This document shows, piece after piece, positions 46,497-61,918 of a stretch of DNA of 64,000 nt. The notes below the pieces were generated by a model. The model ran no database searches, was not told the origin of the DNA, and saw only the letters and a program-made list of their open reading frames with translations. The DNA is from Minisyncoccota bacterium (lineage in GTDB: Bacteria > Patescibacteriota > Minisyncoccia > Phycocordibacterales > JAQTLZ01). Within the stretch, counting starts at the first letter, position 1, and the number at the start of each line of letters is the position of its first letter. The stretch is from positions 8,263 to 72,262 of the forward strand of contig JAQTSY010000002.1 in assembly GCA_028711065.1 (NCBI GenBank). Direction: 5' to 3'. A program made the position numbers and the translations under genes.

Positions 46497-47114
46497 ATGC
46501 CTAAAGTACTTGCAATCATTCCTACAAAAGCAGAGATCGAGCCGAGAGCCCTGAAAGCTCTTCAAGCTCAAGACTATCCAGATTTCGGATTTCTCAACAC
46601 AGTGCTACAGCCGACGAACCTCCATCCAGATCCGGAGAAAAATCGCGTAACGAATATCGTGGTGAATAGAAACTATGCTCGTAGACTCGCTCTCGCGACT
46701 GACGCGGAATGGTTTTTCTGGATTGATTCTGACGTAGTCATCCCTCCTCATACTATTTCAGAATTCATGCGCCACCGACTTCCCTTTATGGGAGGCTGGT
46801 ATAAAAAGATGGCTGGGCCGGACTGGGTATCGAGTAGGTGGGTTGCAGAAGGCCTCTTTTATCTTTTCCAAGAACCGCAAAGGGGAGTTCAGCCGGTAGA
46901 TATGATGGGGCTGGGGTGCGTCATGATGCATCGCAAAGTTTTGGAGCGGATTGATTTCAAACCAGGCACGGAAGTCTATTTACGAGACGTCTTTGGGCGA
47001 AGCTATTTCTATGCGGAATGTATGTATTTCTGCCAAGAGGCGATTCAAAACGGTATTCGTCCTCATATTCTCGGAAGTATCATCTGTGATCATATAGAGA
47101 AGAAAGTAGGCTAA
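46497..47114 (+). CDS. mini GT-A fold glycosyltransferase (GT2-like), paralog 2
   Basis: [51 protein letters not shown]. Confidence 0.6.
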
Positions 47115-47203
47115 AACGTCTCCAAAACTTGCTTTTTTCCCTCTACTTCGATACAGTAGTGGCTACTGTTTTCAAGCAGTTTTTTCTTTCCAAGATTCAC
47201 AGA

Positions 47204-47620
47204 ATGCCGACAATCAATCAATTAATCAAGCGAAAACGAGTTCCGCTCAAACGCAAGCCAAAAGCGGTAGCTTTGATGCGCTCTTTTAATGCTTTGAAGA
47301 ACCGACCAAAATTCCTCCCATCTCCATTCAAGCGAGGTGTCTGCACGAAAGTAACCACAAAGACTCCAAAGAAACCAAACTCTGCTATCCGAAAGATCGC
47401 TCGTGTACGACTTACCAATGGTCTCGAAGTTACTGCTTACATCCCAGGAATTGGCCACACTCTTCAGGAACACTCTGTAGTGCTTCTTCGAGGAGGACGA
47501 GTAAAAGATGTCGGACTTCGCTACACTATTGTACGAGGAGTTTTGGATGCGACCGGCGTAGAGAAGAGAATGAAAGGACGAAGTTCATACGGCGCTAAGC
47601 GGCCGAAGGCCGCAAAATAG
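47204..47620 (+). CDS. rpsL: 30S ribosomal protein S12
   Basis: [12 protein letters not shown]...[60 protein letters not shown]. Confidence 0.95.
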
Positions 47621-47713
47621 CTTCTCCAGCTTCATGGAGCTTCACGAGCTTTGAATTCAAAAGCTAAAGAAGCTACAGGAAGCTCTAAGAATCTTACGAA
47701 GCTAAACAAAACC

Positions 47714-48184
47714 ATGCGAAGAAAAATAAAAAACCGAAAAGTTGTTGGACCTGATATGGTATTCAATTCTCCACGCGTGGCGAAGTTTACCAATTACCTC
47801 ATGCTTAGCGGTGAAAAGAGCATTGCTCGCAAAGTTGTCCATGATACTTTTGAGTTAATCAAAGAAAAAGCAAAAGTAGCTGATCCTGTAGAATTTCTAG
47901 AATCTGCTCTTAAGAACACCACTCCTCTTATGGAAGTTCGCTCACGACGAGTCGGAGGCGCCAACTATCAAGTTCCCCGAGAAGTCCGGAAAGAAAGACA
48001 GCAAGCGCTTTCCATGAAATGGATTATCGAAGCTGCTCGAAGCAAGAAAGGAGCAAACATGCACAAGAAACTCGCTGATGAAATTATTGCAGCTTCTAAG
48101 AATGAAGGAGAGGCTGTGAAGAAGAAGGAGAATACTCATAAGATGGCAGAAGCAAACAAAGCATTCGCTCACTTCACCTGGTAG
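47714..48184 (+). CDS. rpsG: 30S ribosomal protein S7
   Basis: ...VAKFTNYLMLSGEKSIA...VRSRRVGGANYQVP...KMAEANKAFAHFTW. Confidence 0.93.
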   Translation: MRRKIKNRKVVGPDMVFNSPRVAKFTNYLMLSGEKSIARKVVHDTFELIKEKAKVADPVEFLESALKNTTPLMEVRSRRVGGANYQVPREVRKERQQALSMKWIIEAARSKKGANMHKKLADEIIAASKNEGEAVKKKENTHKMAEANKAFAHFTW

Positions 48185-48215
48185 TCAAAATTTCTTTCTT
48201 GGTAAATTTCATCGT

Positions 48216-48248
48216 TGAATACTGCGAGTCTCCCTCGCAGTATTTTTC
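48216..48248 (+). terminator. Hairpin aatactgcgag-tctcc-ctcgcagtatt plus TTTT immediately after rpsG
   Basis: 11-bp stem and T-run; terminates rpsL-rpsG before the insertion. Confidence 0.65.
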
Positions 48249-48334
48249 ATACAGCTCGGTACGATTCTCGTATTCGCCTCGAACTTTGCTCAAAAAATTA
48301 ATTTTGGAAGCCTCACTGAACTTGAGATTAAAAC

Positions 48335-48376
48335 AAAAAACCTCAGACAAAGAAGCATGAGGCTTTCTGTCTGAGG
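48335..48376 (-). terminator. Hairpin cctcagaca...tgtctgagg with A-run on plus side; terminator for minus-strand small gene
   Basis: Lies 10 nt past stop of 48386..48622 on minus strand. Confidence 0.5.
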
Positions 48377-48385
48377 CTTGTCCCC

Positions 48386-48622
48386 TTACATCTGATGAAA
48401 GGGGATTTCTTTCTCGTTTCTGATTTCCTTGAAGGATTCGAGGCAGTATCCGTTCTCGAGGCTGGCGTACCAGCAACCACTCTCGGGAGGCCGGACGACT
48501 TCCAGGACCTTCATTCCCAACTTTGTTGCCGCCAGCTCGATATTTTCTGCCACGACAATCCCGAGTTGAGTGTGTGACTTCCGACCCGGATTCTGTTCGT
48601 CGTCCCGGGCGTGCTGTAGCAT
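48386..48622 (-). CDS. small VOC (glyoxalase-like) half-domain protein, foreign-looking
   Basis: AAGGAG SD 9 nt upstream; own terminator; sequence HTQLGIVVAENIELAATKLGMKVLEV...LENGYCLESF resembles a VOC beta-alpha-beta-beta-beta module; high GC. Confidence 0.35.
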   Translation of the reverse strand: MLQHARDDEQNPGRKSHTQLGIVVAENIELAATKLGMKVLEVVRPPESGCWYASLENGYCLESFKEIRNEKEIPFHQM

Positions 48623-48913
48623 GAAGAACATGAGCGCATCTCCTTGAAATGAGGTTAGACGGACACAATTTCGGCATTCTTCCCCTGTCTACTATATTAG
48701 CATATTTATGTCTAAAAGTCAATCTCTGTTTTGGCCCTCTCCGGCTTGATAATTTGGTCCCTTTGCCGTCTCATATTGTCGAGAAGCCCTGTTTCTTTTT
48801 GCATTTTTTTGAATTCCCAACTTTTTGGGTGAAATTCTTATACACTTCTCAATATGTCGAAATGATTGGATAATGCAGGGAAAGGTAACTATTATTCACT
48901 AATAAAAAACTCT

Positions 48914-49276
48914 ATGACAAATGAGAAAAAAGTTGAGTGGCTGCTCCGCATCGGAGTAGCGGGGGAGTTTGCAGGGCACGGCCTTCTTGCTGTGCAGGGG
49001 AAAGCAGATTGGATTGGCTGGATCAGTCAAATGATTCATGTCGATACCGCGACTGCGACGACACTGCTTCTTATTATCGGCATTACGGATGTCATTATGG
49101 CTATTATTGTTCTCGTAAAACCTATCCGCATTCTTCTCCTCTGGATGGCTCTTTGGGGTTTCTGGACAGCACTCCTTCGACCATTGGTGGGGCAGTCAGT
49201 ACTCGACTTTGTTGAACGTTCGGCAAATTGGGCTGCGCCTTTAGCTCTCTATTATTTCTATAGATCCCGACAATAA
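48914..49276 (+). CDS. DoxX-like small membrane protein
   Basis: WLLRIGVAGEFAGHGLLAV...TM helices typical of DoxX family; followed by terminator 49293-49325. Confidence 0.5.
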   Translation: MTNEKKVEWLLRIGVAGEFAGHGLLAVQGKADWIGWISQMIHVDTATATTLLLIIGITDVIMAIIVLVKPIRILLLWMALWGFWTALLRPLVGQSVLDFVERSANWAAPLALYYFYRSRQ

Positions 49277-49292
49277 ACCCTCATCCATAAAA

Positions 49293-49325
49293 AAGCAAAA
49301 CCGCCTCAGGGCGGTTTTGCTTTGC
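49293..49325 (+). terminator. Hairpin gcaaaaccgccc-tcag-ggcggttttgc
   Basis: 12-bp stem, T-rich tail. Confidence 0.6.
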
Positions 49326-49326
49326 T

Positions 49327-49355
49327 TGACAGTATACCCCCTGGGGGTATATGCT
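49327..49355 (+). promoter_or_regulatory. csoR-copA promoter (-35 TTGACA 49327-49332) with 17-bp perfect CsoR-type operator palindrome ATACCCCCTGGGGGTAT (49335-49351) in the spacer
   Basis: GC-rich pseudo-palindrome of the type bound by CsoR-family repressors, placed between -35 and -10. Confidence 0.6.
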
Positions 49356-49362
49356 TGTGTGT

Positions 49363-49626
49363 ATGACAAATACCAAACAAAAAATGGTTCGACGGCTCAA
49401 GATTATTGAGGGACAAGTGCGGGGGTTACAAGAAATGATCGAGAAAGGAAAATATTGTATCGATATCATCACCCAGACATCTGCGGTGAAGCAGGCGCTT
49501 TCGGGCGTAGAAGATACGCTTATGGAAAATCATTTGAACACGTGCGTAGTGCATCAGATGCAGAAAGGCAAAGAGGGCACTGCGGTCAAAGAAGTTTTGA
49601 AAGTGTATCGACTCAAACGCAAATAA
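49363..49626 (+). CDS. csoR: CsoR/RcnR-family metal-sensing transcriptional repressor
   Basis: [36 protein letters not shown]...ENHLNTCV with Cys-His-Cys ligand pattern. Confidence 0.85.
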
Positions 49627-49631
49627 AATAT

Positions 49632-51911
49632 ATGAGCACTCAAAAAACATTTCGCGTCCGTGGAATGCACTGCGCCTCATGCGCAGGGATTATTGAAAAG
49701 ACTTTCAAAAAGACTCTGGGCGTGGCTTCTGCCGAAGTAAATTATGGAACTGAAAAGGCTAAAGTCTCATATGACGAATCAAAAATAAGTCCTCATCACC
49801 TTTCAAAAAAGATAGAACCGCTTGGGTATTCTCTTGTCACTGAAGATATGACGGCAGAACAAATGGGGATGTCCGCCGATGAACATGCCGCTCATATAGG
49901 CTTGAGTCAATCAAAGCGGGAAAAACTTGCCGAGATTCGCTCAATTCGAAACAAAGTGGTTTCAGTCATCCCTCTCGCTGTCGTGAGTATCTTGTTTATG
50001 GTGTGGGACATTGTTGGGGGAATGTCTGCATCTGTAGAAACTTTTTTCAAATATTTCCTTCCGATTTCTGCAACCTACACGCTTTTCTATGTTGGAAAGC
50101 CATACCTTCAGGGTTTTGGCCGGTTTCTCCGCTTTGGCCATGCAAACATGGACACGCTTATTGGTATCGGCACTTCGGTCGCCTATGTATATAGTCTCGC
50201 AATTATTTTTATCCCGACCTTCTCACAATTTGTCGGCAATTCCAATACTTTCTTTGATGTCACTATTATCGTCATCACATTTATCGCACTTGGAAAATAT
50301 TTGGAAGCGCGTTCAAAATTAAAAACCGGGGATGCTATCGAGAAACTTTTAAATCTTCAAGCAAAGACGGCTCTTGTGTTGCGGGGTGGGAAAGAAGTCG
50401 AAATTTCCTTTTCCGATGTGAAGCATGGAGATTTGGTAATTGTAAAACCAGCACAGAAAATTCCGGTTGATGGAGAGGTCACGGAAGGGAATTCGTTCAT
50501 TGATGAATCGATGATAATGGGAGAGCCGATTCCGGTAGAAAAAAATATCGGTGATCGGGTCGTGGGGGGAACGATGAACACGACAGGGTATTTTGTATTT
50601 AAAGCCACAAAAGTTGGTGATGAGACAGTACTGGCGCACATTATTAAGGTCGTCGAAGAGGCGCAGGGAAGCAAAGCTCCAATCCAAGCTTTGGCAGATA
50701 AAATCTCGGCTGTTTTTGTGCCGATTGTCCTCGTACTATCTTTTGTAACTCTAGGGCTATGGCTTGTCCTCGGTTCGCACTATCTTGGATTTTCGCAAGC
50801 ACTCTCGGACGGCCTCGTTTCTTTTGTTGGAATTCTGGTCATTGCGTGTCCCTGCGCGCTTGGGCTCGCGACCCCGACCGCGATCATTGTTGGAGTCGGC
50901 AAGGGAGCAAAAGAGGGAATTTTAATTAAAGATGCCGCGTCTCTCGAGAAACTGCATCTTGCAAATGTCGTAGTGGTGGATAAAACAGGTACGATTACCA
51001 AAGGGAAACCGGAACTTATCGATGTAATTTGCGCTCAAAATCAAAACAAAGACGAGGTCATTTCGATTCTCGCATCTTTGGAAAAAAGATCAGAGCATCC
51101 GATTGCTCATGCTATTGTCGCGCATGCAAAAGAGAATAAAATAGATTTCTTAAATGTACAGAATTTTGAGATTGTAAAAGGAAAAGGTCTGAGCGGAGTA
51201 ATAAATGGAAAACAGTATTTTGCCGGGAGTGCAAAATTTGCAGAAAGTTTTGGTCTCGCTTTTGATTACAGGACGATAGAAAACGAAACTCACGAAGGAA
51301 AATCTCCCGTTGTTCTTTTTACCAGAGAGTCTGTACTTGGTGTGGCTTTGGTTGCTGATAAGATAAAAGAAGAAGCTGTTCAGGCAGTCAAAAATCTCCA
51401 GGCGCTTGGTATCAAAGTAGTAATGCTTACCGGAGATAATAAAAACACCGCCCATTTTATCGCGAAAAAGGCCGGAATTACGGACGTGGTATCAGACGCT
51501 TTACCAGAAGAAAAATTGAAAGAAATACAGAGACTTCAGTCAAATGGAAATATTGTGGCTATGGCGGGGGATGGAATTAATGATGCTCCTGCGCTTGCGC
51601 AAGCCGATATCGGAATTGCTATGAGCACCGGGACAGATGTGGCAATCGAAACTGCTGGAATCATTCTTCTTCACGGAGATATTTCAAAATTAATGAAAGC
51701 AATTCGACTCTCGAAACTCACGATGCGAGGCATTAAGCAAAATCTTTTCTGGGCATTCTTTTACAACATTGTCGGCATTCCTTTGGCGGCTGGTGCATTC
51801 TATCCAGTGTTTGGAATCCTTTTGAATCCTGTTTTTGCGGGAATGGCTATGGCCTTGTCGAGTGTGTCTGTGGTTTCAAACTCATTACGAATTAAAGCGA
51901 AAAAATTATAA
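49632..51911 (+). CDS. copA: copper-translocating P1B-type ATPase
   Basis: N-terminal HMA (GMHCASCA), CPC motif [29 protein letters not shown]. Confidence 0.95.
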
Positions 51912-51914
51912 TTT

Positions 51915-52940
51915 ATGAGCGCACAAACATATACTTTTCATGTTCACGGAATGCATTGCCGAGCTTGCGAGCTTATGACGGAAAGTGAGATCGGCGACTT
52001 GCCGAATATTTCGAGTGTGAAATCGAGTTTTAAAAATCACTCGGTAGAAGTTGTGGGGGATTTCGGCGCCAAAACTCCGGAACAAATCGCCGAAGAGCTT
52101 ACCGTGCCCCTGAAACCCCACGGATACACAGTTTCTATCGAAAAACAAAACCATTCCGCAAAATGGGGAGATTTTAAAATTGCTGTGCCGATTGCCCTTG
52201 GGTTTGCCGTTTTATTTGTGCTTCTACAAAAACTTGGCATTGTAAATCTCGTGAATGCTGGAAATGTCACATACGGGACAGCATTCGTGATCGGTATCAT
52301 TGCTTCACTTTCGACGTGTATGGCAGTTGTCGGAGGACTTCTTCTCTCAATGTCGGCGACGTTTGCCAAAGAGGGTGATAAGGTAAAGCCGCAACTTATG
52401 TTCCACGGAGGACGGATTGTTTCATTCTTTATTCTCGGCGGAGCGATTGGTGCGATTGGTTCTGCGTTTACTCTCAACACATCAGCGACATTTATCCTAA
52501 GCCTCATTATTGGCATTGTGATGCTTATTCTCGGTGTGAATCTTCTCGACGTCTTCCACTTTGCAAAAAAGCTCCAGCCCAGTATGCCGAAATTTATTGC
52601 AAAGCATGCTCACGGCGTATCCAAATTCAATCACACACTTACCCCGCTTCTTGTTGGTGTCGCCACATTTTTCTTGCCGTGCGGGTTTACGCAATCAATG
52701 CAACTCTATACTTTGACGACCGGGAGTTTTTTGAAAGGAGGACTCACTATGCTTGCCTTTGCGCTCGGCACACTTCCGGTTCTTGCACTTGTAAGTTTCA
52801 GCTCATTCAGTATGAAAAATAATTCGAAATCTGGAATTTTTTTCAAGAGTGCTGGGCTCGTAGTAATTCTCTTTGCTCTTTTTAATTTAATAAATAGCTT
52901 GGTTGTAGTTGGAATTATTTCACCCGTGTTCAATTTCTGA
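51915..52940 (+). CDS. HMA-domain fused to polytopic membrane domain (DsbD_2/TauE-like); putative metal-handling membrane protein
   Basis: N-terminal GMHCRAC metal-binding fold, then 6+ TM segments with LPCGFTQS motif. Confidence 0.75.
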   Translation: MSAQTYTFHVHGMHCRACELMTESEIGDLPNISSVKSSFKNHSVEVVGDFGAKTPEQIAEELTVPLKPHGYTVSIEKQNHSAKWGDFKIAVPIALGFAVLFVLLQKLGIVNLVNAGNVTYGTAFVIGIIASLSTCMAVVGGLLLSMSATFAKEGDKVKPQLMFHGGRIVSFFILGGAIGAIGSAFTLNTSATFILSLIIGIVMLILGVNLLDVFHFAKKLQPSMPKFIAKHAHGVSKFNHTLTPLLVGVATFFLPCGFTQSMQLYTLTTGSFLKGGLTMLAFALGTLPVLALVSFSSFSMKNNSKSGIFFKSAGLVVILFALFNLINSLVVVGIISPVFNF

Positions 52941-52953
52941 TAAACTTACAAAC

Positions 52954-53337
52954 ATGAAGGCAACTATTATTTCCATCATAATTTTCGTAGCTCTTATCGG
53001 AGGAGCCTTTCTTCTCACGAGAGGTGTTTCCAATACTCCAGTCGCAAACGCAAACAACGTAACTATAGTTGACGGAAAACAAATTATCGAAATTCATGCG
53101 AAAGGTGGATATCAGCCGAGAAAGAGTATTGCAAAAGCTGGCATTCCCACCATTCTTCGATTTGATACAAGCGGAACATTCGACTGTTCATCTTCTGTCC
53201 GAATCCCGAGTATGAATATCTCGAGACTTCTTCCGCAGACCGGCACAACAGATATTGATATAGGAAATCAGCAAGTGGCAACCCTTCGAGGGACTTGTGG
53301 AATGGGAATGTATCCATTTGAAGTGACATTTAACTAG
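52954..53337 (+). CDS. small membrane-anchored cupredoxin-like protein (putative)
   Basis: TM anchor IISIIIFVALIGGAFLL; C-terminal CSSS...TCGMGMYPFEVTF Cys/Met-rich motif; typical partner of the HMA-membrane protein in copper cassettes. Confidence 0.45.
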   Translation: MKATIISIIIFVALIGGAFLLTRGVSNTPVANANNVTIVDGKQIIEIHAKGGYQPRKSIAKAGIPTILRFDTSGTFDCSSSVRIPSMNISRLLPQTGTTDIDIGNQQVATLRGTCGMGMYPFEVTFN

Positions 53338-53468
53338 AGTGGTTTCCTTTTGCATTTTTCCCGACTTTGCGGTACTCTAGTGCTACGTTATTTAGGCCTC
53401 TGGCCTTTTATTTATTTGTTTAATTTTAAGCTACAAGCCACAAGCTAACAGCTACAAGCTAATTTATC

Positions 53469-55622
53469 ATGGAAAGAGACTATCCACTCGCAAAAGTCCG
53501 TAACTTCGGCATCATCGCGCACATCGACGCCGGGAAGACCACCACATCCGAGCGAATTTTGTATTACACGGGAGAAATTCATAAGATCGGCGAGGTGCAC
53601 GAAGGCGAGACGACGACCGACTGGATGGAACAGGAACGAGAGCGAGGCATTACTATTACCGCCGCTGCGATTACTTGTTTTTGGAACAAGACCGATCTTC
53701 CCGATCGTTCAAAGAAAGAAACAAAATATCGTTTCAATGTAATCGATACCCCTGGGCACATCGACTTTACCGTAGAGGTAAAGCGATCTTTGCGAGTACT
53801 CGACGGAGCTGTGGTGGTATTCGACGGAGTGGCCGGAGTAGAACCGCAATCAGAAACGAACTGGAGATATGCCGACGAGGGAAACGTGCCTCGAATCTGT
53901 TTCATCAACAAGCTCGACCGAACAGGCGGAAGCTTTGAGCGATCATTCCAATCAATCCTCAATCGTTTGAATAAAAACGCTGTCCGAATGCAGCTTCCTA
54001 TCGGAGAAGAAGAAAAATTTGAGGGAGTTATCGACCTTCTCAAAATGAAGGCGTACTACTTCGAAGGGGAAATGGGAGGCACTATTGTTGAAAAAGAAAT
54101 TCCTGCTGAATATCTCGAATCTGCACAGAAATATCGAAATGAACTCGTAGAGAAAATTGTTGAGCGAGATGAGAAGCTTATGAACGAGTACTTTGAAGGA
54201 AAAGTTCCTCCAGTAGACGTGCTTAAGAAACTGCTTCGAGAAGCATGTCTCAAAGTAGAGATCGTTCCTGTATTCACCGGTTCTGCTCTTAAGAACAAGG
54301 GAGTTCAGCTTGTACTCGATGCTGTCGTTGATTATCTTCCTTCGCCTCTCGATATTCCTCCTATCAAAGGAATTGATCCAAATACAGATCAGATTATTGA
54401 ACGACATGCTGATGATTCTGAACCATTTGCTGCACTCGCATTCAAATTGCAAAGCGATCCATTCGTAGGACAGCTTACCTTCTTCCGAGTCTATTCTGGA
54501 ACACTCGAAGCTGGTTCATATATTTACAACGTCACAAGCGGGAAGAAAGAGCGACTCGGACGAATCGTTAGACTTCAGGCTGACAAGCGCGAAGAAGTGA
54601 AGAAAGTATTTGCCGGAGAAATTGCCGCCGCTGTAGGACTCAAAGAAGCGAAAACTTCAGATACTTTCTGTGACGAAAATCATCCGATCATTCTTGAAAG
54701 AATTAAATTCATGGAGCCGGTGATTTCTCTTCGCATTGAACCAAAGACAAAAGCTGACCAGGAGAAAATGGGATTTGCTTTGAAGCGTCTTTCTGATGAA
54801 GATCCTACTTTCAAAGTGGTTGCTGATTCTGAAACAGGGGAAACGGTTATCAAAGGTATGGGAGAGCTTCAGCTTGAAATTATGGTTGACCGAATGAAAC
54901 GAGAATTCGGCGTTGAAGCAAATGTCGGTAAGCCTCAAGTTGCGTACAAAGAAACAATTCAGGGTTCAGCAGAGGCAGAACATAAATACATCAAGCAGTC
55001 TGGAGGTAAGGGACAATACGGACACGTGCGAATTACGATCAAACCGCTCGAACCGCTCGAGCTTGCGGAAGGAAAGAAAATTCCGAAGAACGTACACCGA
55101 GAAGAAGAATTTGAATTCATCGATAATATTAAAGGAGGTGTTATCCCAAACGAATTTATTCCAGCTGTTGAAAAAGGAGTGAAAGAAGCGATGGAGAGAG
55201 GAATTGTTGCCGGATACAAGATGGTGAATGTTTCTTGCGAACTTACCTTCGGATCGTATCACGATGTGGACTCGTCTGAAATTGCCTACAAGATCGCTGC
55301 TTCGCAAGCTTTCCAAGATGCTGCGAAGAGAGCAAAGCCTGTCATTCTCGAACCGATTATGAAAGTGGAAGTGGTTACACCGGATAAATTCATGGGAGAC
55401 ATCACTGGACATCTTTCTTCAAAACGAGCAGTGATCGACGGTATGAGCGAGAGGGGAATGAACAAAGTGATTGATGCAAAAGTTCCACTCGCTGAAATGT
55501 TCAGCTATGTGACGACCCTTCGTTCGATGTCAGAAGGACGAGCAAGCTATACAATGGAATTTGATCACTACGAGGCTGTTCCACCAAACGTTGCGACTAC
55601 GATCATAGAAGCCCGTAAATAA
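53469..55622 (+). CDS. fusA: elongation factor G
   Basis: G1-G5 motifs (AHIDAGKTTT, DTPGH, NKLD), domains II-V. Confidence 0.97.
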   Translation: MERDYPLAKVRNFGIIAHIDAGKTTTSERILYYTGEIHKIGEVHEGETTTDWMEQERERGITITAAAITCFWNKTDLPDRSKKETKYRFNVIDTPGHIDFTVEVKRSLRVLDGAVVVFDGVAGVEPQSETNWRYADEGNVPRICFINKLDRTGGSFERSFQSILNRLNKNAVRMQLPIGEEEKFEGVIDLLKMKAYYFEGEMGGTIVEKEIPAEYLESAQKYRNELVEKIVERDEKLMNEYFEGKVPPVDVLKKLLREACLKVEIVPVFTGSALKNKGVQLVLDAVVDYLPSPLDIPPIKGIDPNTDQIIERHADDSEPFAALAFKLQSDPFVGQLTFFRVYSGTLEAGSYIYNVTSGKKERLGRIVRLQADKREEVKKVFAGEIAAAVGLKEAKTSDTFCDENHPIILERIKFMEPVISLRIEPKTKADQEKMGFALKRLSDEDPTFKVVADSETGETVIKGMGELQLEIMVDRMKREFGVEANVGKPQVAYKETIQGSAEAEHKYIKQSGGKGQYGHVRITIKPLEPLELAEGKKIPKNVHREEEFEFIDNIKGGVIPNEFIPAVEKGVKEAMERGIVAGYKMVNVSCELTFGSYHDVDSSEIAYKIAASQAFQDAAKRAKPVILEPIMKVEVVTPDKFMGDITGHLSSKRAVIDGMSERGMNKVIDAKVPLAEMFSYVTTLRSMSEGRASYTMEFDHYEAVPPNVATTIIEARK

Positions 55623-55643
55623 TTTTCTCTATAACCACGAAGC

Positions 55644-55678
55644 CACGAAAAAAGCCCTCAACTGGGGCTTTTTTCGTG
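55644..55678. terminator. Long hairpin cacgaaaaaagccc-tcaact-gggcttttttcgtg after fusA
   Basis: 14-bp stem including A/T tracts; bidirectional. Confidence 0.65.
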
Positions 55679-55679
55679 C

Positions 55680-55688
55680 TGTGGATAA
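55680..55688. promoter_or_regulatory. DnaA-box-identical TGTGGATAA (10-mer TGTGGATAAC) abutting the -35 of the lipoprotein promoter
   Basis: Exact 10-mer, 2 nt upstream of TTGACA. Confidence 0.45.
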
Positions 55689-55690
55689 CC

Positions 55691-55720
55691 TTGACAAATA
55701 GGGTGCTTTGGTGGTATAAT
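55691..55720 (+). promoter_or_regulatory. Consensus sigma70-type promoter TTGACA-N18-TATAAT driving lipoprotein gene
   Basis: Perfect -35 and -10 hexamers. Confidence 0.6.
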
Positions 55721-55788
55721 ACAGGTACGTTAGGGCGTGCGCCCCGACCATTAAACGGAAATAGTTCTTCAAAGAAGGAGTGTGATTC

Positions 55789-56256
55789 ATGTGCAAGATC
55801 ATCACGTTCGCGAGCCCGTTTCTCTTCTTCATTTGCTTACTCACTGGCTGTTGCCGTGAGGAAGTGATGGAAGAGGGACAGTTCCGCGATGTTCCCTTGT
55901 CCTACGCCGGCGTTTCCGGCGAGTACAAGGTCTCGATCTCCTCCGAGCGCGAAGGAGAAAAACAGGTAACCCTCGATCCCATAGAGGGAAAGGGAGACCG
56001 GTTTTGGCGGATCTTCGCCAACATCACCACTTTTCAAGGGAAAACGGAAATCTCTCTCCACGTCTGGACGCCGAGTGACGAATGGAAGTTCGTCCACTAC
56101 AGAGTCTATGATAATGGAAAAGAGAAGTCCGTAAGGAAGCAGGGCGGCCGCTTCTCGAAAGAGGAGCTCAAGAGTGCGAAAGCACTTCTGAAGCAGGCGC
56201 TGGCGGACGTCGAGAACGACGAACACCGGCGGCCAACCCAGGTTTCCGAACCCTGA
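55789..56256 (+). CDS. lipoprotein (lipobox LLTGC), high-GC, foreign-looking
   Basis: AAGGAG SD 8 nt upstream; signal peptide plus LTGC lipobox; ~55% GC. Confidence 0.55.
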   Translation: MCKIITFASPFLFFICLLTGCCREEVMEEGQFRDVPLSYAGVSGEYKVSISSEREGEKQVTLDPIEGKGDRFWRIFANITTFQGKTEISLHVWTPSDEWKFVHYRVYDNGKEKSVRKQGGRFSKEELKSAKALLKQALADVENDEHRRPTQVSEP

Positions 56257-56363
56257 ACGATTGTCTACAATGATAGACAAAAATGCCACGCTCCCTGAGT
56301 GTGGCCTTTTTGATTCCCAATAATTCTCCACAGCTTGCCTAGAGCCTTTGCACTCTATGCTGT

Positions 56364-57587
56364 ATGATAAAAGCAATGGAACAAAAAGAGAAAAATCTCT
56401 TTGGGGCTTCTCTCAAATGTAAGAGTATAGAATTTTATCTCTGCCTCACTTTACTCGTCTTTGCTTCTTTCTCCATCGTAATCGAAAAAGTCGAAGCTTC
56501 TTTTAGTGATGATCCGAACTTCAAGGTTGAACTTATCACCAATCCAACTGCCACAACGGCCACGGTGCCGCCAGATTATAACGTAACTCTTACTGCTCGT
56601 GTTACTACTCCTCCCGCAGGAATATCGAAATTCATCTATACGATGATCTGCGATTACTATAACCCTGATGCTGGAATAGAAGAGTCGTGGATCCGTGCTG
56701 CTGGCGAGTATGGCGCTCCGATTGTCTATACTCCAGACACAACGTATACGATGTCAAAACCATGTGTATACTCTCATCCGAAAAGTTATGTTGATCCGGC
56801 TACTGGAAAGGCGGTCTATTTTCCCTATACGCCATTTATAAGAGTGGAGGGGAGAAATGAGCAGGGATGGGGCGCCCGAGCTATTGATTATAAGACGATA
56901 GACGTTTTTCCACCTTCGCCAGATGCGATAGGAAACAAAACTGCTACTCTCGTCTTTACGAACAAAGTCCTGCCAAGCAAAGAAGGATTTCCTTCAGTGA
57001 AGCAAGCAAGCGATTTCTCTGTGTTTGTTGATACGACAGAGTACCCGCTTGGAGACAGCGTCTCCATTCCCGTGACTCCCGGGTATCACTTGGTGAGTTT
57101 GGTCGGAGATCCTTATTATGACCAAACATCCTCTCCAGGTTGCAATACAGAATCTGTCTATGCCGGAGATAACGATGTAGCGACCTGCGCATTCACACAG
57201 ACATTCAAAGGCGGTTGGCTTACGGTAACCATAGATGGAGCATCGATAAATGGTTCCTATGACGCATTCACTCCGGTGCTTGCGGGAGGGTCTAATATTC
57301 AGAAATCTTTGAAGATTGGGGAAGCAACATATCTACCTATGGGTGTTTATAAAGTGAAAGAAAACCTCATCAATGCTCATAATCCGAAATTCAGCGGAGA
57401 TTGCAAAAAGCTTGGAGGGGGAGCTCTCTCGAAAATTGCGCAAGTGGTTGTCAATAATGGGACTCATTCCTATTGTCACATTACCAACAGTGGCCAATCG
57501 GCATTTCTAAGCGGACAAAGTTTTGTCGCGAATATATTGGGAGGATTCGGTTCTCTTTTCAACACCATTCAATCGATGTGGAAATAA
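56364..57587 (+). CDS. secreted hypothetical protein (407 aa)
   Basis: N-terminal anchor FYLCLTLLVFASFSIVI; alternative start 56376. Confidence 0.6.
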   Translation: MIKAMEQKEKNLFGASLKCKSIEFYLCLTLLVFASFSIVIEKVEASFSDDPNFKVELITNPTATTATVPPDYNVTLTARVTTPPAGISKFIYTMICDYYNPDAGIEESWIRAAGEYGAPIVYTPDTTYTMSKPCVYSHPKSYVDPATGKAVYFPYTPFIRVEGRNEQGWGARAIDYKTIDVFPPSPDAIGNKTATLVFTNKVLPSKEGFPSVKQASDFSVFVDTTEYPLGDSVSIPVTPGYHLVSLVGDPYYDQTSSPGCNTESVYAGDNDVATCAFTQTFKGGWLTVTIDGASINGSYDAFTPVLAGGSNIQKSLKIGEATYLPMGVYKVKENLINAHNPKFSGDCKKLGGGALSKIAQVVVNNGTHSYCHITNSGQSAFLSGQSFVANILGGFGSLFNTIQSMWK

Positions 57588-57604
57588 TCGAGATCTAAAA
57601 GGAT

Positions 57605-60600
57605 ATGCATTCATTTCTTAAATACTTCACGATCACATTTATCACTGCTTTCCTTGTTATTGGTGGCGGAATTCTTCTCACACATTCTCCTCGGCATGTT
57701 GCTGCTGATTTTTCAGGTCCAGCTCCCTCAACTCTTCCAAATACATTAAGTGTAAAACTTGAAACTATTCCCGAACCTCCTCCAGGAGAAACTACGGATG
57801 GAATTCTTGTCCCTCCAGGACTTTCGAATCAAAAATTTAAAGCCAGTGTGTATCTGAGCGATGGCAGTTTGGATACTAACTTTCCTATTACCTATCAATT
57901 TGGATGCGATGACGATACCAGCAAAACAGGAAGTGGTAAGACTGAGTATGAAAATCCCTTTACAGTCGGAGATCCTGGCCCCGATTCTCCAATTTTGTGT
58001 AATTTCACTACGATTCAAAAGTATGATGCGAACGTACCGGGTCTTGGAGGAGCTTCGCGTGCGTACTACTATCCGACCATCTACAATGTTTACGACCACA
58101 GCGGATCGGGTCCGGGACTCGCGAGTAGGACTCTCGTATTGAAGCCCGATAGCGACGATTGGAGTATTTCGCTGACCGGGAGAATTTTTGATAAAGCGCC
58201 TGGGGATTGGTTTTACCTCGGCGCTGTTCAGGGAGATATCACTCCCAAAAAGAATCATGAAGGATTAACGTACACCTATGACTTTGATTGCGCTGCTCCT
58301 CAAGATGGGGGACAAACCACGAAAAGTTTTCCGAATCGTGCAGCAACCTCGCTTAGCACTACCTGTCGTTTTCCCGATATCCCCGATACCACTTACCACC
58401 TCGGACTTACAGTGACGGATAGCAAGGGAGATTACAAGACTACAACGTATGATGTGAAAACTCCATCGGTAACGCCCACACCGACTCCGCCTGGTCCTAC
58501 CCCAACTCCGACAGCAACCCCGACCCCAACTCCAACACCTACGCCTGGAGGATGCAGTGTTTCTCTCACCTCCGATCAAGACACATACTTTATTCATCCG
58601 CCTTCGGAAGTTCAGGCAACATATACAGCGACAATTCACAACCCGCCTCCAGGCGCAACAAGATTCGAGTATACTTTCATCTCTTATCAGCGTACGAATG
58701 TGGATACATTGGGTCCGGTTGATGGAGGAGATTCATATGTACAAACTAGATGGTATAACAGCACCAAAGATAAAAAAGGCAATGCAGCTAATTCAGCTAC
58801 AGTAAGCGTGCACGCGAAAGTGAAAGGAGGACAGTCGTGCGGTGAAGCTGATAAAGCGGTGAGGATCGAAGAAAACCCGAGCTCTATGAGCGTAGTTCTC
58901 AAAATCAAGCCGCAAAAGGTGGCAAAGTTGCCGGATAAAAAGGACAAGTCGACAGCGGCAAAAGCTGATAAGCCGGATGCTCGCTCAAAAGTGGAAGAGA
59001 CGGCTACTATCACCATAGCGAAAGGTGCAGCCAATAAGCCTCAAGGACCTTATAAATACACACTGACGGGTGGGGGAGATTGTACCCCGGCGACGACCGT
59101 TTCGAATACGCAACTGACCCAGCTTTTTAATTGTTATTACAAAGACGGTACACCTTCCGGAAAGGAATATACGAAAAAAATTCATGTTGAAGATTCGAGC
59201 TACCCTCCGCAGACTGCAGAAAATACTGCGAAATTAAAAGTGGTAGATCCGGCGCCTGTGCCTCTTGGCGAGATAGATGTTGTGGTGAAAGTCGCTCCGC
59301 CTGCAAAAGGAGTCAAAGAAACCCTAAAGGCGAAAGATGTGACTTTGAAGGTGGGGAGTACGTCTGCTAAAGATGGAAGCAAGATCAAATTCTTGCCTCT
59401 CACTACCTATCCTGTTGTGGTAGACCCTCAGCCAAACCACACGGCAGATATGAGCGGATGTGGCGAAGGTTCAATCACACTTACTCCAAGTGCTCCGAAG
59501 CAGACGTGTACTGTCACTGAAGTGTCTTCTCCCAATCCAACCCCAACGCCCACACCCACCCCGACCCCTACGCCTACTCCTCCAATACCAACCCCTACTC
59601 CGACTCCGACACCTACACCAACGCCGAGTCCGACTCCAACCCCTCCAGCGAGTTGTGACAGGAATCCTATTTTCTCCGACAACCCTTGTGAAAATAGGTT
59701 TGGATCGGATTCTGTGACGACGAGCAAAGATCTCGGGCGTTCAAATGTGTCCGAAAATTCCGTAAAGAGAAACACTATCCCAAACCTAACGAACTATTGT
59801 CAGAATGTTCCGACTAATCAGTGTGCTGTCCACAATCCTTGTGATCTGAAAAGATTTTGGTGCTATACAAAATTAGTTGGCACAAACACCTATGATCGGA
59901 CTAGTTCGAGTGATTCGGATTATGGCTACAAGGCTTGTTCCTGCGGTTTTTCAGGTTCTGGACTTCCAACACCCACCCCAACCCCAACGCCAACTGACAT
60001 TCCTCCCGTTACCCCAACTCCCACACCAACACCAACCCCCACTCCTATTCATACGCCGACTCCAACAGTAACTCCTACGCCAACGCCTACTCCAACACCT
60101 ACTCCAGGTAAACCGGCAGGACAAAATATAAGACTCAATGTGCTTTCAATTCCTGGGAAGGCTGGTGTGACTTCAAAAGTTGCGGTTATTGCACGAGTGG
60201 GTAAAGTAAGCTTTAGCCTTGGGAATATGAATACTTTTCAGCCGATAGAGGCGGGAAAGTACGATATTGTAGAGCGCAGTGAGAAAGGCTACACGGCGGT
60301 AGTATCTGGCGATTCCGCATGTGAGACAAAAAATGCTAATGGAAGTGATACGCCAACGACATTCACGAACAATGGGACTATGACTGTTGTGGGGAGCGTG
60401 ACTATAAATTCCGGAGAGAATATTTCTTGCATCATCACTAATACCGCTGTATCAAATGTGCCGAAAACTCAAAATATTAAACTTGATGTAAAAGTAGTCG
60501 GAGGAGAATCAGCAGTGAGAGATTTCCTGATTGCTCGAGCAGGTACAGTAAGTTTTAATCTGGCGAATCTCAATACTTTCCGTCCTATTAAGGCGGGGAC

Positions 60601-61786
60601 GTATGCTATTCAGGAACATAGCCGAAAAGGCTACACGGCGGTAGTATCTGGCGACTCTTCGTGCGAAACAAAAAATAAAGATGGGAGCGACAAGCCGACA
60701 GTTTTTACCGGGAATGGCAGTCTTGTTTCAGTGGGGTCAGTCACAATTAATGCTGGAGAGAATATCTCTTGTGTCATTACTAACACTGCCGCAACAAAAC
60801 CAGCATCGCTTACGGTAGAGAAAATCGTCGCTGGAAAAGGCGCCCCAGATAAGGCGAACAAGTTTGATGTCTGTATCGGAACGGATTGTGCGAAGGGTTC
60901 TAAAACTGAAAAGAATTTGGTTGTGGGGCAAGAATATACTGTTTCAGAGAAGAATCTCCCTCATTATGCACCAAGCTGGGCTCTTCCTTGTGTCCAGTCA
61001 AAAACTGATCCGACAAAAGCGACGATCACACTTTCCGCAGGAGAGAATACGTGTTATGTCACGAATACGTATACAAAACCGGGGTTGGATTTGTCTTATG
61101 ACAAGACAAAAATGGGTCTCTTCGATCCAAAATCGGGTATTCCTGTAGTAATCCACGCAACCATTGATGTGAGTGCTCTTATTATTGGATATTTTGTGGA
61201 TTCAAACGGTCAGATAGTTACGATATCTATTACGCCAGATGCTCGTTCCGGTCTTATGACAAAATATTACACCCTTCGCAATAGTTCAGGGGATCCGTCG
61301 GATAAGTTGAAAGGAAACTTAACCACGCTTCTCAGTGGAAGACAGCTTTCTTTTACCGCTGTCGATCAAAATGGTAAATCTAGCACACTCACTATGGAGT
61401 TGGACAAATCGGATAAATGGGATGAGTGGGGGAAGGCTTGGAAGAAAAATCATATTATCCCTACGATCAGTGTTGATTCGGTATTAATAGATAGTAAACT
61501 CGCCAAAGAACTTAATGTAAATGGAAAGGATAGGCAGCTCTCAGACGATAACGCTCTGAAAGCTCTCTTGGACCGCATTGCAAATGACCCTTCGCGTGTG
61601 CATGAAGGAAATATAACCAAAGGAGCAGACGGTTCATACCAATATGATCCGCTTCCTCCTCCACCACCGCCAAAAGGAAATCCCAGAAAAGTATCCTCAT
61701 CAGTAGATCCTCTTGCGGGCGTGAAAGAAGGCCTCGCTAATATCTGGTCAGGATTTATGAGTCTTTTCCAGAGTGTCACGCCATAA
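57605..61786 (+). CDS. giant secreted surface protein (1393 aa) with PT linkers, PKD-like module and three tandem ~105-aa domains
   Basis: Signal/anchor FTITFITAFLVIGGGILL; linkers PTPTPPGPTPTPTATPTPTPTPTP, SSPNPTPTPTPTPTPTPTPPIPTPTPTPTPTP, LPTPTPTPTPTDIPPVTPTPTPTPTPTPIHTPTPTVTPTPTPTPTPTP; repeated domains ending GEN(I/T)(S/T)C(I/V/Y)(I/V)TNT. Confidence 0.75.
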   Translation: MHSFLKYFTITFITAFLVIGGGILLTHSPRHVAADFSGPAPSTLPNTLSVKLETIPEPPPGETTDGILVPPGLSNQKFKASVYLSDGSLDTNFPITYQFGCDDDTSKTGSGKTEYENPFTVGDPGPDSPILCNFTTIQKYDANVPGLGGASRAYYYPTIYNVYDHSGSGPGLASRTLVLKPDSDDWSISLTGRIFDKAPGDWFYLGAVQGDITPKKNHEGLTYTYDFDCAAPQDGGQTTKSFPNRAATSLSTTCRFPDIPDTTYHLGLTVTDSKGDYKTTTYDVKTPSVTPTPTPPGPTPTPTATPTPTPTPTPGGCSVSLTSDQDTYFIHPPSEVQATYTATIHNPPPGATRFEYTFISYQRTNVDTLGPVDGGDSYVQTRWYNSTKDKKGNAANSATVSVHAKVKGGQSCGEADKAVRIEENPSSMSVVLKIKPQKVAKLPDKKDKSTAAKADKPDARSKVEETATITIAKGAANKPQGPYKYTLTGGGDCTPATTVSNTQLTQLFNCYYKDGTPSGKEYTKKIHVEDSSYPPQTAENTAKLKVVDPAPVPLGEIDVVVKVAPPAKGVKETLKAKDVTLKVGSTSAKDGSKIKFLPLTTYPVVVDPQPNHTADMSGCGEGSITLTPSAPKQTCTVTEVSSPNPTPTPTPTPTPTPTPPIPTPTPTPTPTPTPSPTPTPPASCDRNPIFSDNPCENRFGSDSVTTSKDLGRSNVSENSVKRNTIPNLTNYCQNVPTNQCAVHNPCDLKRFWCYTKLVGTNTYDRTSSSDSDYGYKACSCGFSGSGLPTPTPTPTPTDIPPVTPTPTPTPTPTPIHTPTPTVTPTPTPTPTPTPGKPAGQNIRLNVLSIPGKAGVTSKVAVIARVGKVSFSLGNMNTFQPIEAGKYDIVERSEKGYTAVVSGDSACETKNANGSDTPTTFTNNGTMTVVGSVTINSGENISCIITNTAVSNVPKTQNIKLDVKVVGGESAVRDFLIARAGTVSFNLANLNTFRPIKAGTYAIQEHSRKGYTAVVSGDSSCETKNKDGSDKPTVFTGNGSLVSVGSVTINAGENISCVITNTAATKPASLTVEKIVAGKGAPDKANKFDVCIGTDCAKGSKTEKNLVVGQEYTVSEKNLPHYAPSWALPCVQSKTDPTKATITLSAGENTCYVTNTYTKPGLDLSYDKTKMGLFDPKSGIPVVIHATIDVSALIIGYFVDSNGQIVTISITPDARSGLMTKYYTLRNSSGDPSDKLKGNLTTLLSGRQLSFTAVDQNGKSSTLTMELDKSDKWDEWGKAWKKNHIIPTISVDSVLIDSKLAKELNVNGKDRQLSDDNALKALLDRIANDPSRVHEGNITKGADGSYQYDPLPPPPPPKGNPRKVSSSVDPLAGVKEGLANIWSGFMSLFQSVTP
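58478..58548 (+). repeat. PT linker-coding repeat 1 in gene 57605
   Basis: acNccN units. Confidence 0.55.
59533..59650 (+). repeat. PT linker-coding repeat 2 in gene 57605
   Basis: acNccN units. Confidence 0.55.
59966..60110 (+). repeat. PT linker-coding repeat 3 in gene 57605
   Basis: acNccN units. Confidence 0.55.
60120..60800 (+). repeat. Tandem internal domain duplication (two ~330-nt units, ~45% aa identity) within gene 57605; a third degenerate copy follows to ~61080
   Basis: NIRLNVLSIPGKAGVTSKVAVIARVGKVSFSLGNMNTFQPIEAGKYDIVERSEKGYTAVVSGDSACETKN... versus NIKLDVKVVGGESAVRDFLIARAGTVSFNLANLNTFRPIKAGTYAIQEHSRKGYTAVVSGDSSCETKN... Confidence 0.7.
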
Positions 61787-61804
61787 GCATTTTTCATTGA
61801 TTTA

Positions 61805-61845
61805 CCACAGCAAAAATCCTCCGTTCTGGAGGATTTTTGCTGTGG
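61805..61845. terminator. 18-bp-stem hairpin ccacagcaaaaatcctcc-gttct-ggaggatttttgctgtgg after gene 57605; right arm overlaps DnaA-like box
   Basis: Perfect long stem with A/T tracts. Confidence 0.65.
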
Positions 61846-61849
61846 ATAC
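61841..61849. promoter_or_regulatory. DnaA-box-like TGTGGATAC (8/9) upstream of secreted-protein gene 61919
   Basis: Near match. Confidence 0.3.
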
Positions 61850-61918
61850 TCTTTTTGTGAGGGGGGTATATAATAAAATCAGTAATTATTATTTATTCTA
61901 AATAAGCGCGAATATCCT

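Follow-up and report, generated by a model that had tools for sequence, protein, structure and literature searches.

In Escherichia coli and most bacteria, rpsL, rpsG, fusA and tufA, which encode ribosomal proteins S12 and S7 and elongation factors EF-G and EF-Tu, are arranged in this order in the str operon. The locus described here lies in a 64,000-nucleotide (nt) stretch of DNA (GenBank contig JAQTSY010000002.1, positions 8,263 to 72,262 of the forward strand), referred to below as the window, from a metagenome-assembled genome (MAG) of Paceibacterota (Patescibacteria, Candidate Phyla Radiation), and consists of rpsL-rpsG and fusA separated by an insert that includes a copper-export operon. 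As in the classical str operon, rpsL and rpsG are adjacent with a single promoter-like element ahead of them, and fusA is located downstream on the same strand. The locus differs in that a terminator follows rpsG, 5.28 kb with three units foreign to the operon lie between rpsG and fusA, fusA has a predicted promoter, leader and terminator of its own, and tuf is located at a distance of more than 11 kb or in another part of the genome; a contiguous set of rpsL, rpsG, fusA and tuf under one promoter was not found at the locus. The loosened state seen here is common across the lineage. It is likely that rpsL-rpsG and fusA are separate units throughout the lineage, with spacers of variable content that in this genome hold a near-orphan gene, a gene for a 120-amino-acid (aa) membrane protein and the copper operon. 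The insertion is a habit of the lineage at a variable site and not a striking disruption.

The inserted copper operon resembles the CsoR-regulated efflux operons (cso of Mycobacterium tuberculosis; csoR/copZA of Bacillus subtilis and Streptomyces lividans) in having a CsoR repressor with Cys-His-Cys ligands, a G/C-tract pseudopalindrome with TAC-N9-GTA over the promoter, and a P1B-1 CopA as the effector. It differs from these in that there is no separate CopZ, the accessory proteins being a fusion of HMA and DsbD_2 domains and a putative CupA-like cupredoxin, in that csoR is the first gene and probably leaderless, and in its patescibacterial host. A cupredoxin gene next to copA is also found in the copY-cupA-copA operon of Streptococcus pneumoniae, and the putative CupA-like product encoded here resembles CupA in its N-terminal hydrophobic helix and in Cys...CxMxM. 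The repressor is CsoR here and CopY there, the pneumococcal CopA has a cupredoxin N-terminus whereas the present CopA has a ferredoxin-like HMA N-terminus, and the similarity to S. pneumoniae CupA is remote (E = 1.9e-5). CupA, which serves as a copper chaperone in the pneumococcus, has been described as limited to a few streptococci (PMC7558416).

The str cluster in this genome and in its relatives

All coordinates are those of the window, and features are located on its plus strand unless the minus strand is named. The genes rpsL (47204-47620; Pfam Ribosom_S12_S23, E = 3.5e-30) and rpsG (47714-48184; Pfam Ribosomal_S7, E = 1e-54) are closed by an intrinsic terminator (48217-48250) with a 12-bp stem (-17 kcal/mol, z = -3.7) followed by TTTTT. 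The fusA gene (53469-55622) encodes an EF-G with all five Pfam domains (GTP_EFTU, EF-G_D2, EFG_III, EFG_IV and EFG_C), and its unit is closed by a terminator at 55645-55683 (-29.2 kcal/mol, z = -6.8). A preliminary description of the locus, made from the sequence before the present analysis, had placed the end of rpsL-rpsG at 48184 ahead of a strong terminator and the start of fusA at 53469, and both placements were confirmed by Pfam and folding. The interval from the rpsG stop codon to the fusA start codon measures 5284 bp and is not one cassette but three transcription units of different history, since strong intrinsic terminators, located by RNA folding, delimit them: a minus-strand unit for an 81-aa protein (orf81), a unit for the 120-aa membrane protein, and the copper operon. 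An Rfam scan of 46900-56400 returned nothing near the gathering score, and no obvious Shine-Dalgarno sequence was seen for fusA, rpsL or copA.

The organisation of the cluster was surveyed by locating S12, S7, EF-G and EF-Tu with tblastn in 160 related loci, 80 of which were taken from one-genome-per-species contigs and 80 from metagenomes, with flanks of up to 10 kb on each side of fusA. Best matches of the EF-G in the genome and metagenome scans were Zambryski-, Nomura-, Kaiser- and Parcubacteria MAGs, with an identity of at most 79%, and NCBI lists the source as Candidatus Pacebacteria. Of 122 relatives, 52 had a gap of 300 bp or more between S7 and EF-G, 19 a gap of at least 1 kb and two a gap of at least 5 kb (5976 and 7388 bp), and at three additional loci no S7 was found within at least 5.8 kb upstream of fusA. 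EF-G and EF-Tu were separated by no more than 300 bp in just 12 of 92 relatives and by at least 1 kb in 45; at 11 loci, some of them among the closest relatives (e.g. L046), no tuf was found within at least 8.4 kb. The cargo carried between rpsG and fusA elsewhere is mutually unrelated and comprises genes for Phd/YefM, PIN, HicA, nucleotidyltransferase, type IV pilin-like and GFA proteins, for a GH15 glycosidase, for a subtilase of 2010 aa and for a 2OG-Fe(II) oxygenase. In this lineage, the rpsG-fusA junction is thus a site of recurrent variation, and the premise of the preliminary description, that the S12, S7, EF-G and EF-Tu genes are contiguous, fails there.

Copper genes near fusA were found in none of the 160 loci within the fetched flanks, and the copper operon at the rpsG-fusA junction is so far peculiar to the present genome. 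Of the two patterns in relatives that the preliminary description had named as counting against it, a generally split operon was largely what the survey returned, and an ancestral position of the cassette was not seen. Its proposal that a metal-resistance module had integrated into a conserved operon stands as to the position, which is not ancestral; the insert is neither a single cassette nor foreign in composition. The absence of tuf after fusA, also stated there, was upheld: tblastn with an E. coli EF-Tu query found no tuf in the 64-kb window, and the Logan contig L176, which extends to about 66.7 kb, gave no EF-Tu match, so that tuf is absent for about 11 kb downstream of fusA. A literature search yielded no usable account of how the str operon is organised in the Candidate Phyla Radiation.

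Among Paceibacterota, breaks in the 'universally conserved' str cluster are routine, both between rpsG and fusA and between fusA and tuf. Synteny expectations taken from model bacteria, such as those applied in binning checks, operon prediction and flags of 'foreign insertion', are unsuited to this group.

Predicted promoters of fusA and rpsL and a possible shared leader element

If rpsL-rpsG and fusA are separate units as proposed, each would be driven by a promoter of the form TTGC[A/T]T, 17 nt, TAC[A/T][G/C]T, with a short hairpin and a U-tract behind it. The rpsG-fusA and fusA-tuf spacers vary by genome, both in length and in the genes that they contain. The predicted fusA promoter (53350-53378) has the -35 hexamer TTGCAT at 53350-53355, a 17-nt spacer and the -10 hexamer TACTCT at 53373-53378. 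The leader, which extends to 53468, continues with the hairpin AGGCC-TCT-GGCCT at 53394-53406, a U-tract and two AGCTACAAGC repeats, so that the elements stand in the order TTGCAT, 17 nt, TACTCT, AGGCC-TCT-GGCCT and TTTTATTTATTT. The predicted promoter and leader of rpsL (47129-47180) comprise TTGCTT-17-TACAGT at 47129-47157 and a hairpin with a U-run at 47165-47185. A stringent sigma-70 scan (at least 9 of 12 positions) gave no site upstream of fusA, nor upstream of rpsL, and the core of the fusA promoter aligns with the fusA-upstream regions of three relatives (L093, L037 and L097) as well as with the window's own rpsL promoter.

A common layout was derived from the 120 nt preceding fusA in relatives in which fusA is separated from rpsG. 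In this layout, TTGC[A/T/C][A/T/C] and TAnnnT are spaced by 16-18 nt, in nearly all cases by 17, and are followed by a short GC hairpin, then by a tract similar to CTTTTTATTT and by the start codon. The promoter pattern was present in the fusA upstream regions of 43 of 103 relatives, compared with 2.2% of 5000 windows drawn at random from these loci. Among the leaders that bear the pattern, 29 of 48 had a hairpin and a U-run within 50 nt, compared with 18 of 960 shuffled leaders, and the hairpin started at a median of 9 nt past the -10. The same promoter-leader design was found upstream of rpsL in 61 of 115 relatives, of rpsG in 1 of 116 and of tuf in 6 of 89. Most likely, fusA is an independent transcription unit with its own predicted promoter. 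Because relatives share the fusA promoter-leader design, separate transcription of fusA is best read as a trait of the lineage and not as an effect of the insertion, which it probably predates. The preliminary description had held that fusA possesses independent signals, a point retained here at the strength just given, and that it had acquired them through the insertion, which is contradicted by the presence of the design in relatives.

The decamer AGCTACAAGC occurs twice in the window (53429-53438 and 53450-53459; 0.1 occurrences expected by chance), both times in the fusA leader, and is also present twice upstream of fusA in the close relative L046 (9926-9935 and 9974-9983).

A composite of promoter and leader (TTG[C/A]HH, 16-18 nt, TAnnnT, hairpin and U-run) was found at only three sites in the 64-kb window, located ahead of rpsL (47129-47185), fusA (53350-53418) and, on the minus strand, nusA (16801-16745). 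The nusA composite has no co-directional gene upstream that would need terminating. A total of 164 occurrences were found in 2.2 Mb of relatives' loci (L001-L168), of which 130 had an open reading frame within 150 nt. These lie upstream of EF-G (31), S12 (31), EF-Tu (22), S19 (11), SecE (4), S14 (2), L28 (1) and L3 (1), which together account for 103 of the 130, and the stems vary in sequence across genomes. This distribution suggests a shared leader element for genes of the translation and transcription machinery, which could attenuate transcription, stabilise the 5' end or insulate the gene from read-through. The gene for S19, rpsS, has a promoter-hairpin module of its own in at least 11 relatives (e.g. 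at about 10927 in L014, 18495 in L025 and 21195 in L037), which suggests that the S10 ribosomal-protein cluster is likewise divided into separate units in the lineage.

It is possible, although rather doubtful at present, that Paceibacterota control their translation and transcription machinery through this promoter-proximal module, as a regulon instead of by operon linkage. In the module, a TTGC-type -35 and a TAnnnT -10 would be spaced by 17 nt and followed by a short GC hairpin, with its start between about +1 and +10, and by a U-tract. It might attenuate transcription weakly, or else both stop read-through from upstream and stabilise the mRNA 5' end. Control of this kind, if true, would explain how the str cluster, and apparently the S10 cluster too, could be split and take up cargo at no cost. 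Should the promoter-hairpin-U leader be regulatory, it would offer a testable handle on growth-rate control in organisms not yet grown alone.

The copper operon, its origin and alternative explanations

The csoR-copA-(HMA/DsbD_2)-cupredoxin genes form an ordinary, canonical copper-export operon. Its predicted promoter (49326-49355; 10 of 12 consensus matches) has the -35 hexamer TTGACA at 49326-49331 and the -10 hexamer TATGCT at 49350-49355, separated by an 18-nt spacer. The predicted CsoR operator, GTATACCCCCTGGGGGTATAT, is located at 49332-49352 between the two hexamers; its palindrome fills the spacer and reaches into the -10. It agrees at all of the most conserved positions with the type-2 CsoR operator consensus, ATATACCCCTNAGGGGTATAT, and contains the motif TAC-N9-GTA, both of which are taken from PMC3902906. 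The cop genes of L085, L087 and L177 have similar palindromes ahead of them. The start codon of csoR was corrected from 49351 to 49363, and the csoR-first mRNA is probably leaderless, since this codon lies only 7 nt past the -10 hexamer.

The csoR product (49363-49626; Pfam Trns_repr_metal, PF02583, E = 4.7e-27) has as its best solved relatives 4M1P (E = 6.5e-17), 4ADZ and 2HH7. Cys32, His57 and Cys61 are present and align with the YCIDI and H...C positions of the Geobacillus and S. lividans CsoR proteins, a spacing that we take to correspond to C36/H61/C65 of M. tuberculosis. By profile, ligand set and operator, the repressor is predicted to belong to the Cu(I)-sensing CsoR subgroup. The copA gene (49632-51911) encodes an ATPase with one N-terminal HMA domain by Pfam, which scored 580 bits against TIGR01511 (cut-off 397); the score against the E. 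coli CopA equivalog falls below its cut-off (605 versus 1316), as expected for a distant orthologue. P1B-1 ATPases carry CPC in transmembrane helix 6, YN(x)4P in helix 7 and M(x)2SS in helix 8, together with DKTGT. The copA translation has CxxC, CPC, DKTGT, YNxxxxP and MxxSS (as MALSS), so that subfamily score and motifs alike identify the product as a predicted P1B-1-type Cu(I)-exporting ATPase.

The two accessory genes follow. The first (51915-52940) encodes a membrane protein in which HMA (E = 1.4e-9) and DsbD_2 (E = 3.8e-32) domains are fused according to Pfam, and it is linked to a cupredoxin gene in L085, L087 and L177-L180. The second (52954-53337) encodes a cupredoxin with a probable membrane anchor; its match to Pfam Cupredoxin_1 (27.5 bits) is barely above the cut-off of 27, its closest solved relative is S. 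pneumoniae CupA (2MRY/4F2E), at the E value given above, with one Cys and CxMxM aligned, and the N-terminal hydrophobic helix was seen in the sequence. In CupA-type chaperones, a binuclear Cu(I) site is formed by Cys/Cys/Met/Met ligands. The product of this last gene is a putative CupA-like Cu(I) chaperone. Between the cupredoxin gene and fusA, the sole hairpin is the weak one of 5 bp in the fusA leader (53394-53406), and the cop operon ends with no other signal that resembles a terminator. The preliminary description, which had given the csoR-copA-HMA/membrane fusion-cupredoxin cassette a promoter and terminators of its own, was correct as to the promoter; the supposed terminator is the hairpin of the conserved fusA leader and is located downstream of the predicted fusA promoter.

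The following sequence of events is inferred from these features. Apo-CsoR would block the promoter by binding the palindrome, which takes up the -35/-10 spacer and extends over the -10. Binding of Cu(I) at Cys32, His57 and Cys61 would free CsoR from the DNA, and the csoR-copA-(HMA/DsbD_2)-cupA-like transcript, probably leaderless, would then be produced. The CupA-like chaperone and the HMA domains would hand Cu(I) to CopA, by which it would be exported. Gene identities, motifs, the operator, the hairpins and the comparative statistics are observations, whereas repression and induction, use of the predicted promoters and the direction of copper transfer are inferred. A copper operon of this kind is routine, and its value lies in annotation, as a clear CsoR operator and promoter in a genome of the Candidate Phyla Radiation; a putative CupA-like chaperone is paired here with a classical HMA-type CopA.

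The cop genes have a GC content of 0.43-0.45 and a codon usage inside the normal range of the window. The 120 best CopA matches show 68-71% identity, and every named one belongs to Patescibacteria. The same four cop genes in the same order are present in L085 in an unrelated neighbourhood, and rearranged or expanded cop modules are found in L087 and L177-L180. Compared with L177, identities are 89% for the HMA-DsbD_2 protein, 79% for the cupredoxin, 61% for CsoR and 70% for CopA, while the corresponding values against L085 are 43%, 44%, 78% and 70%; the segment 51915-53337 corresponds to 10903-12325 in L177 and to 12301-13713 in L085. These findings, with the mosaic identities within the cassette, point to shuffling of modules within the phylum over long periods, and not to a recent foreign import. 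Among housekeeping genes sought to calibrate the relatedness of L177, the sole shared family, a GATase, was 24% identical and not orthologous.

A recent arrival of the copper module on a mobile element, for example a serine-recombinase island whose recombinase was later lost, with integration into the str cluster, is an unlikely explanation. It would account for the lack of cop genes at this site in the 160 related loci and for the discordant identities to L177 and L085, which point to exchange of modules, and similar cop modules do adjoin large serine recombinases in L087 and L177-L179. It would also give a meaning to the 18-34-nt direct repeat GTTTCYTTTTGCATTTTT at 48791 and 53342, which flanks the 120-aa gene and the cop operon and whose extended copies (48791-48824 and 53342-53368) span about 34 nt with one 7-nt indel, the right-hand copy holding the fusA -35. 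The score of this repeat was reached by 3 of 2000 shuffles, but another place in the window scores equally, and the rpsL promoter, which the repeat resembles, scores nearly as high. None of the 80 genome loci checked has the GTTTCYTTTTGCATTTTT core ahead of fusA, nor was it seen ahead of the 120-aa gene in those relatives that were inspected. An interpretation as an att site or target duplication was rejected, the repeat being no better than the window background; it is probably a shared promoter-like motif. The marks of a mobile island were likewise missing: no recombinase, transposase or tRNA gene was found in or beside the insert, and GC content and codon usage equal those of the genome at large. 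Over the HMA-DsbD_2 and cupredoxin genes, the DNA is just 75.6% identical to that of L177, hence nothing recent, and the 120-aa gene, although within the repeat-bounded block, is unlinked to cop genes in relatives.

Two further explanations were considered. The absence of any sigma-70 site with at least 9 of 12 matches upstream of fusA would fit an arrangement in which fusA has no effective promoter and is read from the copper promoter, tying EF-G supply to copper, as would the 5-bp size of the sole intervening hairpin, a leader that overall folds no better than shuffled sequence (z = -0.5) and the strong terminator after fusA, placed as for the last gene of an operon. However, rpsL, which is necessarily expressed, lacks such a site as well, TTGCAT-17-TACTCT is kept upstream of fusA in relatives with quite different upstream genes, and an essential gene under a copper-repressed promoter would be implausible, which makes the read-through very improbable. 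A chimeric contig fusing a copper-operon contig to the str genes is less probable still, even though the source is a MAG. Independent Logan assemblies of the runs SRR22315508 and SRR22315509 are 100% identical to the window over 48098-52195, where one contig spans the left junction from the 3' end of rpsG through copA into the HMA-DsbD_2 gene, over 52166-53395, and again from the 3' end of fusA onward. In the second of these contigs, the cupredoxin stop codon is immediately followed by a fusA-type promoter that aligns with sequences ahead of fusA in relatives; composition is uniform over both junctions, and large insertions at the rpsG-fusA junction are common in independently assembled relatives. 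Both junctions singled out in the preliminary description are thus supported by these contigs, the right-hand one as far as 53395. Looked up as exact products, EF-G, S7 and the HMA-DsbD_2 protein had no match on record, so that the 73 nt at 53396-53468 are without independent confirmation. The SRR22315509 contigs found here stop at 52195 and 53395; the latter position lies inside the fusA leader hairpin, and the break there could reflect low coverage, strain variation or the palindrome.

The lineage-wide separation of rpsL-rpsG and fusA is preferred to these explanations, and several points weigh against it. The fusA promoter fits the sigma-70 consensus at 6-7 of 12 positions, and all promoters, transcription starts and terminators described here are predictions. 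No relative above 79% EF-G identity was found from which the rearrangements could be ordered and dated or near-isogenic empty and filled sites compared. The mosaic identities, together with the serine recombinases beside cop modules in L087 and L177-L179, make mobility of the module possible, and the 73 nt at 53396-53468 are backed solely by the window's own source assembly.

Small genes of the insert and genes downstream of fusA

The minus-strand unit next to rpsG (48330-48722) comprises a promoter-like site at 48722-48694 (9 of 12 matches, with TG), orf81 (PHV93_01120; 48631-48386), which encodes 81 aa, and a terminator at 48379-48330 (-28.4 kcal/mol, z = -5.5). A small minus-strand gene of high GC content had been reported at this place, in agreement with its GC of 0.54 (about 0.44 nearby) and its own terminator. 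A word-based search with the product returned itself only, and an exhaustive HMMER search returned 24 remote homologues, of which the 10 scanned showed no credible Pfam family. The gene is a near-orphan of a very rare family.

The second independent unit (48867-49323) has a promoter-like site at 48867-48895, the gene PHV93_01125 (48914-49276) for the 120-aa multi-pass membrane protein, and a terminator at 49292-49323 with a perfect 14-bp stem (-24 kcal/mol). The protein had been labelled DoxX-like (48866-49276), the one gene assignment of the preliminary description that is not supported: neither Pfam, DoxX included, nor NCBIfam gave a match even at E <= 10. More than 1500 homologues are found in Parcubacteria, the best 120 at 72-84% identity, so that the protein is about as conserved as EF-G. 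The context of the gene differs among relatives, with no link to cop genes there.

At the place where tuf would be expected, a lipoprotein-like unit (55691-56256) is located, with a promoter that matches the consensus at 12 of 12 positions and a 155-aa gene at 55789-56256. The gene has a raised GC content of 0.51-0.54, and no Pfam or NCBIfam family was found for its product. Following this gene (55691-63757 and L176), proteins of 407, 1393 (with PT-rich linkers), 612 and 905 aa are encoded, the last of which, on L176, gave no Pfam and no EF-Tu match. These large proteins downstream of fusA are either Pfam-less or show weak matches to surface-protein (SpaA-type) domains.

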